In this document: positions 24,001 through 27,000 of the stretch, piece after piece | Layout of the letters: each line of letters opens with the position of its first letter | Position numbering within the stretch: position 1 is the first letter of the stretch | Assembly: GCA_965226795.1 (NCBI GenBank) | Contig: CBDDDZ010000004.1 | Coordinates: 704,001-768,000 of the forward strand | Length of the DNA stretch: 64,000 nt | Reading direction: 5' to 3' | Source: Candidatus Latescibacterota bacterium | Lineage (GTDB): Bacteria > Latescibacterota > UBA2968 > GCA-2709665 | Position numbers: made by a program

Positions 24001-27000
24001 CTACGCCTGCCCAAGGTCCAGGGTCTCCCGGAAGAGTCGAAGGAAGTTGCCGCCCCAGACTTTCCGGATTTCGTTTTCGGAAAGGCCGCGCGCGAGCATG
24101 GCGCGGGTGAGATGCACGAGCTTTGAGACGTTCTTGACGACGGGTGTGAGCGAACCCATGCCGTCGTAGTCGGACCCGATGGCGACGTGGTCGATACCGA
24201 CCAGGTCCGCCACGTAACAGATATGGTCGACCAGCCGGTCGACGGACGGATTCCCCGGATCGATGAAACCTGGCACGAAGGCGATGCCCATCACCCCGCC
24301 TCCGCCGGCCAGGGCCTTAAGTTGATCGTCAGTAAGGCAGCGCCAGTGGTTGCAGACGGAAAAAACCGCGGTGTGGGTCATCGTCACCGGGAGCGAAGAT
24401 CGTTCAAGAACCTGGAAGAAAGCCCTGTCGTTAACGTGGGCCAGGTCGGTGATGATACCCAGCCGGTTGCTCTCCCGGAGCACGGCTTTGCCGAAGTCCG
24501 TCAGACCGCTGGCGTTCCTGCGTTCACGGTCACGGTCGTCAGGCGTGCACGGTCCAAATGGACTCCTGCTGCCCTGAAGGTAGGCCGGGGCGTCCCCGCC
24601 TTCGCCGTGGGTAATCCCCACGCAGCGCACACCCAGGCGGAAATAGAGACGTAATACATCCATCTCCCCTTCCAGCCAACGACCCGCGCCTTCGATTGTG
24701 AGAAGGATGCCGACTCTGCCGGATTCTTTCGCCCGTTCAACGTCCTGTGATGAGAGCACCAGCATCAGGTCGTCGGGATAACGATCCACCGAAGCCAGGG
24801 TTTGCTCGAGGGTAACCCGAACATTTGCCGTGGGACCGTTGCCGACCACGAAGAAACCGGCGTCGAATCCGCCTTCCCCCATCCGGAGAATGTCGATATG
24901 ATACGCATCGTCCGGTTTTTTCAGGTCCATCGGGCGCTCGCCGCGGTGCACATGTTCCACGGGCGTGTCGTTGTGTCCGTCGACGATAAGGCAGCGATGG
25001 TGGACTGCCTGCGCTTCTTCAAGGGTGATGTCCGGCATGGGAATTGGGTCCTCTGCTGTGGGATAACGGTGTGCCCTTGCGGGTAGGTATGATGCGCTCT
25101 CAGGTCGGTCTACGGAGGGTCGACCGGTACGTTCTGGTTCTTGCGGACCAGGGGATCGTATGTAAATCCGTCGGACCGTTTTTCGAACTCGGCGCGCACC
25201 TGTTTCATGTTCTCCGGGCTCCGGCAGAGGTCAACTGCGGTTCCTGCGAAGACTTTGGCGGTCTGCTGGATCGCATGCTCGGCGAAAGGCAGGGCGGCCT
25301 GCGCGGCCATTTCCCGGTGATGGCCAGGCGTTCCCTTTGCATAACAGACCATCTGGAAGCGTCCCAGAGGGGCCAGCCAGGAAACGTTGTCTTCGTCGGA
25401 GGAGCCCCGGCCCTGCGAGCCGCCGCCCTTGCCGATCTTCGTATTGAACCCCTTTTTGTAGCCCAGGGCTTCCACGCGCTTCACGTCAGCTTCCGTCGGT
25501 TCGGGCGGTCCGAAGAGTTTCAGATTTTTTCGAACAATCTCACACATTGACTTGTTGGGCAGACGCGGGTACACGGCGGTGATACGCGACCATTTCATCC
25601 TCGTGTCCGTGGCTCCGGCGGCGCCCCGGGCGCAGGCGGTGAGGCGTTCACGCACTTCGTCTACCTGCGCGCGGTCCTTGCCCCGTACGAAGTACCAGAT
25701 TTTGGCATAGGCCGGCACCACGTTGGGGGCGTCGCCTCCGTTGCGAATGACGGAATGAATCCTGACGTTTTCGGGTACATGCTCCCGGAGGTAGTTGGCG
25801 GCAATATCCGTGAGCATCACCCCGTCCAGGGCGCTGCGGCCCCGGTGAGCCCACGCGCCGTGGGCGGTACGGCCGAAGAATTCGTAAACGACGGAGTCCA
25901 GCGACGATCCCCCGAAATTGTTGACGCCGGAAGAACTCCCCGGATGCCAGGCGAGGCAGGCGTCCAGGTCCCGAAACGCGCCGTCGCGAGCCATATACAC
26001 TTTGCCCGCCAGGGTTTCCTCCGCCGGACAGCCGTAGTAGACGATTTTGCCCGATGTTCCGGTTGATTCGAGGATTTTTGCAGCGGCGACCGCACCCACG
26101 GCCGGGGCAACGCCCAGCAGATTGTGGCCTCAGCCATGCCCCCAGTCACCTTCCTCGGGACCGCAGTTCGGGAGCGCGTCGTATTCCCCCAGCATCCCGA
26201 TCGCCGGTTCTCCGTTGCCCCGGGTCGCTCGAAATGCCGTGGGGATTTTCTTGAAAGAGAATTCGACCTCGAAGCCGTGCGAAGCCAGGTAGTCCGCGAC
26301 CGCTCCCGAGGATTTGACCTCCCGGAAGGGCCGTTCCGCCCAGGCGTGCACCCGCCTGGAAAGGTCCACGGCGCGTTTCGACTCATCCGCTACGGTGCGA
26401 TCGATGAGGTCCTTTTTTTCTTTCGAGGTCATGACATATCCCTTCTGTAAAAAAACGCCGGTCCACGGTTACTGGAATTGCCGCGTTGGATCGTCAACTG
26501 TTCCGGATCGATCTTCGCCCCGAGTTTTCGAACGGTACATCTTGCAGTCCGTTGATAAAGTCGCTCTGCAGGCGGGACCGAGTCATTGTGGCCGAAGACA
26601 AGGCGCGCGACCGAGGCGAATCGGGGGATTCGAGGAGCGAGCGCAACGCCGTAAGTCGGCCACAAGGGCCGGACGCAGCCCGGATGGACTTTTCCAACGG
26701 GCTGCTAGGGATTAACGATGGCATCAACGACCGCGTCGGCCACCTCCGGAGTCGCAGCTGCCCCACCCAGGTCCGCCGGATGGTTTGCCGGATGGACAAG
26801 CGTTCGATCGACGGCGCGGTCAATGGTCTGCGAGGCGGCGGCGGCTTCCGGATCGTTATGGCGGCTGCCCAGCCAGGACAGCATCATCCCCGCGGAGAGG
26901 ATCTGGGCTATGGGGTTGGCGATGCCCTTCCCGGCTATATCGGGGGCGGTACCGTGGGAAGGCTGGAAGACGCCGTAACGATCGCCTACGTCGGCCGAGG

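Follow-up and report, generated by a model that had tools for sequence, protein, structure and literature searches.

The question raised by this locus is whether two adjacent reading frames on the minus strand of a Candidatus Latescibacterota contig (within the window, i.e. the whole 64,000-nucleotide stretch analyzed) are remnants of a broken gene or parts of a single enzyme. With translation table 11 the M20D gene appears as two pieces of 100 aa and 329 aa, and the initial annotation had proposed that these calls (g01723 and g01722) are one 440-codon gene split by an in-frame TGA. Retranslation of 25110-26432 bears this out, giving 440 codons followed by TAG, with a sole internal stop, the TGA at codon 101, lying between GHG and GHN of the family motif. 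The evidence assembled below makes it almost certain that the apparently broken gene encodes a single intact enzyme, with selenocysteine (Sec) predicted in place of the Cys that normally bridges two catalytic metals.

25110..26432, minus strand: coding sequence of an M20D (TIGR01891) metallo-amidohydrolase, 440 aa via one UGA, from translation and profile match
26130..26132, minus strand: codon 101, an in-frame TGA predicted to encode Sec where the family has its metal-bridging Cys (GHG-U-GHN), from orthologue loci and alignment to HmrA Cys93 by count
26439..26445, minus strand: Shine-Dalgarno-like GAAGGGA, 6 nt before the ATG, from sequence

The full-length protein matches TIGR01891 at 184.3 bits (cut-off 153.75) over residues 22-373, so that the earlier statement of a match running across the TGA holds, and PF01546 and PF07687 are also above cut-off. 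An AF2 model, folded with Cys at position 101 and without metal, reaches a pLDDT of 96.7 and displays the two-domain M20 fold, HmrA (3ram) being the best Foldseek match (TM 0.80-0.81). The predicted active site and its surroundings comprise the following residues, with conservation as seen in alignment A1.

26124..26126, minus strand: His103, predicted metal ligand, invariant in 147/147 rows
26016..26021, minus strand: Glu138 and Glu139 of the PAEE motif, predicted general base and metal ligand respectively, invariant; roles deduced from CsAga Glu140/Glu141 and the M20 mechanism
25944..25946, minus strand: His163, predicted metal ligand, invariant
25320..25322, minus strand: His371 of the subfamily motif GHHR, predicted metal ligand, invariant
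25683..25724, minus strand: Asn237 and Arg250, predicted binders of the substrate alpha-carboxylate, in 100/100 close rows
26163..26165, minus strand: Cys90, a second cysteine peculiar to the subfamily, 11 residues ahead of Sec, in 100/100 close versus 3/46 distant rows

The M20D ligand set is complete (U101-H103-E139-H163-H371, together with E138), position 101 being the Cys column and here predicted Sec. Asn237 and Arg250 were mapped by motif spacing (13 residues, as between CsAga Asn251 and Arg264) and not by direct residue alignment. Among the close rows His372 is present in 96/100, Arg373 in 98/100 and a further cysteine, Cys135, in all 100. The protein is predicted to be a cytoplasmic two-metal amide hydrolase of the M20D type, with aminoacylase or carboxypeptidase chemistry.

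One RNA-library study supplied two independent contigs that span codon 101 with 0 differences; since both are identical over the TGA, the TGA is no assembly error. Contigs that cover the gene come from three RNA-library runs and from a fourth run whose kind is unrecorded, with depth that is flat over intergenic parts; because contigs cannot show transcription and the intergenic depth is flat, the RNA-library contigs confirm the TGA only. Promoter and terminator scans around the gene gave results at the level of shuffled sequence, and an Rfam scan of 24000-28100 gave two matches, both at chance level. Comparison with 15 relatives yields dN/dS values of 0.13-0.26 before the TGA (0.62 for one close pair) and 0.08-0.20 after it; both sides of the TGA are under purifying selection.

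The TGA at codon 101 is kept in 55 Latescibacterota genomes belonging to one class, each copy having one TGA and no other stop at identities down to 68%. In an order-wide search a full-length match was found in 49 of 53 genomes (68-100% identity), and all 49 hold exactly one TGA, consistent with the earlier claim that every orthologue of the order retains it; the TGA occupies the same motif position in 30/30 fetched order loci and in 50/50 family loci. The residue opposite is Cys in 144/150 distant representatives and in 100/100 close rows of A1. Among the 120 homologues listed, 104 are at least 400 aa long, 101 of these fitting the motif regex with Cys and the remaining 3, unmatched by the regex, having Cys in A1; 15 of the 16 shorter entries begin behind the motif. 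The pattern described in the initial annotation therefore stands, while its counts (97 Cys forms, 13 short entries) become 101 and 15, a slight difference that stems from the regex. The paralogue at C5:1249010 reads AHACGHN, with Cys opposite the TGA as had been reported. Public sets carry the Sec family as truncated 'peptidase dimerization domain protein'.

The components needed for Sec insertion, all named in the initial annotation, were recovered: the genome encodes SelB, together with SelA and SelD that both score over cut-off (SelD with its own TGA), and a tRNA-Sec of 73.6 bits. This canonical tRNA-Sec, located beside selB and selA, is the only UCA-anticodon tRNA found in the genome, and UGA is otherwise a stop. 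SelA is present in 54/55 TGA-bearing genomes, the 55th (430 contigs) having tRNA-Sec and part of SelB; SelA is so widespread in the phylum (131/168 genomes), however, that its co-occurrence with the TGA discriminates weakly. The UGAs of this genome's SelD and formate dehydrogenase also have GGU-loop hairpins.

A candidate SECIS core and a second frozen element lie just downstream of the UGA.

26087..26104, minus strand: SECIS core hairpin C-GGCCGY-[RGGU]-GCGGUY-G, 7 pairs, loop from 32 nt past the UGA; pairing kept, fits bSECIS constraints
26105..26115, minus strand: second frozen element GGGC-(GUU/GUA/ACA)-GCCC just 5' of the SECIS core, possibly a hairpin of 4 pairs or a lower stem

All 7 pairs of the core are possible in 59/60 distinct TGA sequences versus 4/22 Cys sequences, and the 4 pairs of the second element, whose 3-nt loop varies, are intact in 60/60 TGA sequences versus 2/22 Cys sequences. 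Of the 164 fourfold sites compared across 30 loci, 6 do not vary, and these are in codons 100, 107, 109, 110, 111 and 114; mean fourfold-site heterogeneity is 0.019 at codons 107-114 versus 0.48 overall, a freezing with a probability of about 2e-5 after window correction, the copies being kin and not independent. In metagenomes the strict SECIS motif occurs in 32/32 TGA loci versus 0/69 TGY (Cys) loci; six metagenome Cys forms (62-74% identical) encode there an identical or almost identical peptide with free codons and no strict motif. The stem varies so little that it shows almost no covariation.

The bSECIS model calls for a loop of 3-9 nt with G in the two positions that open it, a stem of 4-16 bp, a distance of 16-37 nt from the UGA and an energy of at most -7.5 kcal/mol (PMC13188914), and the core complies with 7 bp, loop GGGU, 32 nt and -9.3 kcal/mol. 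A looser version of the model is passed by 72 of the 1030 screened TGAs, so that fit to the constraints alone is weak evidence; as an ab initio selenoproteome screen the same search, with its 72 candidates, is too noisy to give a family list. The -28 kcal/mol stem-loop previously put forward as support does not survive comparison with shuffled sequence: the 93-nt region after the UGA folds at -28.3 kcal/mol with z = +0.82, and 163/200 shuffles fold as well. Three segments compared in this way gave z = +1.05, -1.00 and +0.82, and fold energy was accordingly rejected as SECIS evidence; in this genome's copy the fold of lowest energy has the loop GCCG, unlike the fold common to all copies. The putative SECIS is thus supported by its conservation, which tracks the TGA, and by its absence from Cys orthologues, and gains no support from folding energy.

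Cys orthologues exist at 67-76% identity. One genome (G154) has a 67% identical orthologue with TGC and no SECIS, and SelA, SelB and a tRNA-Sec over cut-off are all absent from it; this is a single contrast, in a genome that is 86% complete. In a tree computed by a quick method with the site masked, the U rows are nested in C rows, with 3 changes versus 21.7 for shuffled labels and support of 87 on the branch holding all U rows; three Cys proteins, known from protein sequence alone, are nested in the U branch. Sec was thus apparently gained once from the Cys subfamily, within one Latescibacterota class, with about two apparent reversions to Cys. An exact-pattern search of 185,579 species genomes, covering only GH[GA]-TGA-GHN-[LIM][LIM][GA] so that MHA-U-GHD types would escape, gave 54 matches, namely 50 Sec-family loci, 2 unrelated frames and 2 sporadic copies without SECIS. 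A wider distribution of Sec was rejected within the reach of that pattern; the sporadic TGC-to-TGA changes at codon 101 affect one copy in Priestia, which is broken, and one in Flavobacteriaceae. A plasmid search gave only relatives of below 60% identity, named 'amidohydrolase'.

Very probably, then, the locus encodes an M20D two-metal amide hydrolase made as a selenoprotein, one gene giving one protein. The original proposal of Sec at the M20D metal-binding Cys is upheld by the UGA at the Cys column, the Sec machinery, purifying selection, the TGA-linked SECIS and the Cys orthologue where SelA and SelB are missing. We infer that selenium would be incorporated at position 101 and that Sec would bridge the metals: SelB-Sec-tRNA would bind the RGGU-loop hairpin 32 nt downstream of the UGA and insert Sec, whose selenolate would stand in for the Cys thiolate between two ions of Zn or Mn; water activated by these metals and by Glu138 would cleave an N-acyl amino acid or a dipeptide at its amide, the substrate being held by Asn237/Arg250. 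The enzyme would work with Cys too. The fuller reading, which has a good though lesser chance of being correct, is that of an uncatalogued selenoprotein family, a non-redox metallohydrolase whose two catalytic Zn/Mn ions are bridged by a selenolate, with a single gain from a Cys subfamily in Latescibacterota that has been kept for the age of a class.

Among the alternatives, it is unlikely that the protein is a selenoprotein in which Sec101 acts as a nucleophile, or pairs with Cys90 or Cys135 in a selenylsulfide redox switch protecting or gating the metal site, or in which the reaction is not simple hydrolysis. The strict conservation of Cys90, rare outside the close relatives, and of Cys135, together with pocket motifs (GRGSSDEDN and GHHR) that differ from those of distant relatives, speaks for such a role, as does the redox nature of most catalogued selenoproteins (PMC13188914); however, Cys forms keep both cysteines equally, no member of the M20D ligand and catalytic set is missing, and Cys forms nest among Sec forms. 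Also conceivable, and very unlikely, is a UGA recoded via the SECIS and mostly filled with Cys, or serving mainly as a valve by which selenium supply controls expression of this gene and of the genes that follow, the working enzyme being an ordinary Cys enzyme. In mammals Cys is inserted at Sec codons under selenium shortage, the Cys orthologues imply that Cys suffices, and the M20D gene lies ahead of co-oriented genes; against this, the sole UCA-anticodon tRNA found is the canonical tRNA-Sec beside selB and selA, and SelD is itself a selenoprotein.

That the locus is a pseudogene, a sequencing error or two separately translated parts is extremely unlikely. Gene callers do divide the gene and leave 15 truncated entries, and the Priestia and Flavobacteriaceae copies show that TGC-to-TGA changes occur sporadically, but the same TGA with no other stop in 55 genomes and the purifying selection on both sides are contrary to decay; the one clear loss, in the near-intact cluster of genome G020, is a clean deletion of the M20D gene. 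Translation in two parts would lose ligands 101 and 103, and the GTG restart codon is replaced by GCA in many copies. A variant code (4 or 25), with TGA read as Trp or Gly in this lineage, has nothing in its favor beyond the in-frame TGA itself and a practically negligible probability: it is refuted by stop usage, TGA being the commonest stop (537 of 1077 long ORFs, in which TGG is used 10,660 times), and the homologue column is Cys, never Trp or Gly.

Four co-oriented neighbors flank the gene.

28052..29266, minus strand: mandelate racemase/enolase-superfamily enzyme, upstream, closest solved structure 3n4f; within 2.5 kb in 20/50 family loci
26705..27844, minus strand: isocitrate/isopropylmalate-family beta-decarboxylating dehydrogenase (IPMDH-like), upstream, below all equivalog cut-offs; less than 2.5 kb from the motif in 25/50 family loci
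24001..25038, minus strand: M19 membrane-dipeptidase-family enzyme, downstream; adjacent in 16/50 family loci
22929..23930, minus strand: medium-chain dehydrogenase/reductase (MDR), downstream; within 2.5 kb in 40/50 family loci

The IPMDH-like neighbor is missing in 21/21 genomes of genus g11 and lies beside Cys relatives in 1/15 short metagenome loci, the MDR is present in many genomes without the M20D Sec gene, and none of the four neighbors is beside the M20D gene in the f4 loci examined. Pantothenate catabolism pairs an amide hydrolase with a dimethylmalate dehydrogenase; this route was considered and is not supported, as no aldehyde dehydrogenase is among the neighbors scanned and the literature offered nothing usable. 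There is about an even chance that the enzyme acts on a small polyanionic N-acyl compound (Arg290, Arg342, His372 and Arg373 being additions of the subfamily) and thereby feeds a catabolic route with the neighboring dehydratase, beta-decarboxylating dehydrogenase and MDR.

Nearly all selenoproteins of known function are redox proteins, and the cases of metal-bound Sec (FdhA, [NiFeSe] hydrogenases) are redox sites. If the present reading is true, the ligand and oxidation-resistance properties of Sec would be separable from redox turnover, at two Lewis-acid metals in a hydrolase, and the Cys orthologues and apparent Sec-to-Cys reversions would offer a natural test of why Sec is selected without electron transfer. 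With Sec/Cys pairs this similar, kinetics, metal choice and oxygen tolerance can be compared directly. New selenoprotein families turn up regularly; this one would add to the catalogue and correct a systematic mis-annotation as a truncated protein.

Among characterized M20D enzymes the best sequence match is Staphylococcus aureus HmrA (3RAM; E 3.8e-41), whose GH[AG]-C-GHN, CPAEE and HP motifs align; at 26% identity, however, HmrA has Cys for Sec, a shorter pre-motif loop, no Cys90 and another C-terminal pocket. Human PM20D2, a beta-alanyl-lysine dipeptidase (7YH4, 8ZEL), has the same ligand motifs (E 7.9e-32, TM 0.78-0.80, 24% identity), but its ligand is Cys and its substrate pocket residues differ, so that its substrate is not transferable. 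In the N-alpha-acylglutamine aminoacylase CsAga (6SLF), according to its published account (PMC7209930), Cys105 bridges both Zn ions, with His107, Glu141, His168 and His370 as further ligands, and Asn251/Arg264 hold the carboxylate; mapped by motif, all of these have counterparts in the Latescibacterota protein (TM 0.69-0.70), although identity is 18-19% and CsAga uses Cys, not Sec. The label 'AbgB-like' given initially fits only loosely, the protein not being AbgB proper. The GHG-C-GHNLLG motif is shared with the AbgB group, and JGI gives the name 'aminobenzoyl-glutamate utilization protein B' to several Cys relatives of 56-72% identity. In the abgABT arrangement an abgA partner stands beside abgB, with the transporter abgT; here no second M20D gene is adjacent (the other TIGR01891 matches are on another contig), AbgT (PF03806) is absent from the 95.9%-complete genome although the same profile detects the E. 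coli control, the pocket residues differ, and NCBIfam gives no AbgB-specific match.

None of the five NCBIfam 20.0 matches to the protein is a selenoprotein model, and the 119 prokaryotic selenoprotein families in Table 1 of a 2026 review (PMC13188914) include no M20/amidohydrolase entry, though other catalogues may differ. The same source describes predicted non-redox Sec enzymes (UshA-like, and a glutamine amidotransferase with GxUxG) with UGA, bSECIS and Sec at a metal or catalytic Cys; since such hydrolase-type families are already listed, the M20D protein is not the first predicted Sec hydrolase. FdhA (Mo/W) and the [NiFeSe] hydrogenases likewise combine a UGA and downstream bSECIS with Cys homologues and Sec at a metal (PMC13188914), but they are redox enzymes. 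What would be new here, beyond an M20 family missing from that catalogue, is a hydrolase with Sec at the position predicted to bridge two hydrolytic metal ions.

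At window 26432-25110 on the minus strand, the M20D amidohydrolase gene reads, as the initial annotation had claimed, as 440 residues followed by TAG, with a single internal stop, the TGA of codon 101 (window 26132-26130, minus strand; translated context EYDALPNCGPEEGDWGHG*GHNLLG), at which table 11 splits it into ORFs of 100 and 329 aa. The read-through protein scores 184.3 bits against TIGR01891 (cut-off 153.75) over residues 22-373, reproducing the reported match across the TGA, and passes both PF01546 and PF07687 in profile search. The residue opposite the TGA is Cys in 100 of 100 close relatives and in 144 of 150 distant representatives.

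Conservation of the TGA in every orthologue of the order was likewise confirmed: 49 of 53 genomes hold a full-length match with exactly one TGA, located at the identical motif position in the fetched loci (n=30). Among 168 phylum genomes searched, the TGA form is also carried by six that belong to a second family of the class, for a total of 55; matches further removed lack a stop here. Of the four order genomes that lack the gene, G020 shows a clean deletion with intact neighbours on both sides, the G005 contig stops just before the gene position, and G001 and G002 retain the upstream dehydrogenase alone. Against 15 relatives, dN/dS is 0.13-0.26 on the 5' side of the TGA and 0.08-0.20 on the 3' side; the closest pair, which has few changes, gives 0.62 on the 5' side.

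An assembly error is countered by two contigs of one independent RNA-library study that span codon 101 with 0 differences (these confirm the codon and do not show transcription), and an altered genetic code was rejected because TGA is the commonest stop of long ORFs in the source genome, ending 537 of 1077. Sporadic nonsense changes probably occur at this codon elsewhere: the exact TGA pattern has 54 matches in 185,579 species genomes, of which 50 belong to the Latescibacterota family, all with the SECIS (Sec-insertion hairpin) motif, two are unrelated frames, and two are AbgB-type genes best read as such changes:

L088 (Flavobacteriaceae), 2501-2529: TGA in place of the corresponding Cys codon, no SECIS, otherwise full length
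L047 (Priestia), 2501-2529: TGA in place of the corresponding Cys codon, no SECIS, broken by further stops

The Sec machinery described earlier is present, with SelB, SelA and tRNA-Sec clustered on contig C5. SelD itself contains a TGA and is one of two Sec-type genes noted elsewhere in the source genome:

C4:335792-336715: Sec-type SelD (TCG*AAK, loop GGUC)
C5:1515570, plus strand: Sec-type formate dehydrogenase (CSRA*HAPT, hairpin like that of E. coli fdhF)

SelA occurs in 54 of the 55 TGA-form genomes, the other (G035) having tRNA-Sec and part of SelB; this co-occurrence is weak on its own, since 131 of the 168 phylum genomes have SelA. In contrast, G154 (86% complete), whose 67%-identical orthologue has TGC, shows no SelA, SelB or over-cut-off tRNA-Sec. 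Outside the window, a small ORF at C5 ~46475 (minus strand; IEYCAA*GY, CxxU), with a hairpin 3' of the TGA, is a SelW/Rdx-like selenoprotein candidate.

The energy of the stem-loop first reported at -28 kcal/mol was reproduced (-28.3 kcal/mol), but it is not evidence for a SECIS because 163 of 200 shuffled sequences fold equally well; the case rests instead on conservation. Only 6 of 164 fourfold-degenerate sites are invariant in 30 genes (codons 100, 107, 109, 110, 111 and 114), and heterogeneity at such sites is 0.019 in codons 107-114 versus 0.48 overall. Among 101 metagenome loci retrieved with a pattern allowing TGA, TGC or TGT, the strict motif GCCCCRGCCGYNGGYGCGGTY is present in 32 of 32 TGA forms and 0 of 69 Cys forms; two Cys forms have a looser core, and six encode an identical or almost identical peptide with codons that differ from those of the TGA forms. 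A 7-pair hairpin with an RGGU loop, 32 nt 3' of the UGA, is the fold that fits all copies; it is possible in 59 of 60 distinct TGA sequences versus 4 of 22 Cys sequences, and GGGC-NNN-GCCC lies directly 5' of it in 60/60 versus 2/22. Covariation in the stem is slight, and the source-genome copy has another loop in its minimum-energy fold. The initial annotation had only folded the element; compared with the bSECIS constraints as set out in section 5 of PMC13188914, the hairpin agrees with them. GGU-loop hairpins also accompany the UGAs of SelD and formate dehydrogenase. In 47 of 50 loci of the family, Gly codon 100 (window 26133-26135), which directly precedes the UGA, is GGC; this may reflect an influence of 5' context on recoding.

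The gene, its TGA codon, the Sec machinery, the RNA element that tracks the TGA and the set of ligands, all established at the level of sequence, agree with the Cys column on the originally proposed Sec at the metal-binding Cys; we infer, with very little doubt, that SelB would direct its insertion at codon 101. A real, lineage-restricted selenoprotein variant of M20D hydrolases is well supported. In a quick ML tree of a chosen subset of 74 proteins (26 Sec, 48 Cys; Sec/Cys site masked), 26/26 Sec rows fall inside Cys rows and 3 changes are needed versus a shuffled mean of 21.7, most simply accounted for by a single gain followed by reversion twice, in P0163 and in P0154/P0156 (read as Cys from protein sequences). 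These reversions suggest that the gain from Se is quantitative; the leading guesses for its nature are a fully ionised, softer ligand or a bridge that resists irreversible oxidation.

Within 2.5 kb of the motif, the 50 loci have an MDR dehydrogenase (40), an IPMDH-family dehydrogenase (25), an enolase-superfamily enzyme (20) or an M19 dipeptidase (16), with sulfatases and aldolases in the wider flanks. Cluster composition is not fixed, and the gene set suggests that a small acylated acid is broken down, a substrate class that we hold at about even chances. The place immediately upstream that the IPMDH-like gene takes in other genera seems to be an insertion spot: in L098 and L100, both of genus g11, it is occupied by Type ISP restriction-modification, RloB/AAA and TIR genes. 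Between the gene and its upstream dehydrogenase (window 26544-26710) is a MITE-like repeat of ~165 nt whose ends are inverted copies; it has 29 genome matches (about 20 exceeding 110 nt, 77-95% identity), which explains the high run depth there. More intergenic repeated elements, with depth peaks, joints and loose ends, lie at window ~27855-27930 and ~21764-21865.

The structure model (Cys in place of Sec, 147-row alignment; pLDDT 96.7) best matches HmrA (TM 0.80-0.81), PM20D2 and CsAga. In the reported CsAga site, the two zinc ions share Cys105 as a bridge, alongside three His and one Glu, and the carboxylate of the substrate is held by Asn251/Arg264 (PMC7209930; PMC11511702). The predicted counterparts are all kept: U101, H103, E138/E139, H163, H371, N237 and R250. 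In this site Se would bridge two Zn/Mn ions and support ordinary M20D hydrolysis, a joint reading that is quite probable. In the distant homologues P0005 (GHGDAHH) and P0124 (FQDMHN), Asp replaces the bridging Cys, as in M20A-type sites. Cys90, Arg290, Arg342, Glu347-Asp348, His372 and Arg373 are found in 91-100 of 100 close rows and are uncommon in 46 distant rows; by these residues the subfamily is distinct, and they suggest one conserved, probably anionic substrate. The M20D part of the original "M20D (AbgB-like)" label stands, and AbgB proper is rejected, as a search of the source genome found no AbgT and no partner M20D gene adjoins. Another M20D gene (C5:460175-461272, minus strand; MHACGHD type) has its motif region out of frame with both flanks, the two compensating frameshifts being either assembly errors or gene damage.

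No selenoprotein model of NCBIfam 20.0 matches the read-through protein. A 2026 screen of 44,000 MAGs by Deng et al. reportedly yielded novel candidates. The titles and abstract openings searched contain no report of an M20D selenoprotein, and Haft and Tolstoy 2025 or Deng et al. 2026 could contain one. M20, amidohydrolase, hydrolase and peptidase are not mentioned in the main texts of PMC12013277, PMC9312934 and PMC13326102, nor the terms searched for in four supplements of PMC12013277, and the BSepDB supplement ahead of its Table S2 has no entry for the family. The M20D selenoprotein is apparently uncatalogued: Table 1 of a 2026 review (PMC13188914) has 119 prokaryotic selenoprotein families, none of them M20. 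As that table already includes predicted Sec hydrolases (UshA-like, glutamine amidotransferase), what is new in the M20D protein is the position of its predicted Sec, at the metal-bridging ligand.
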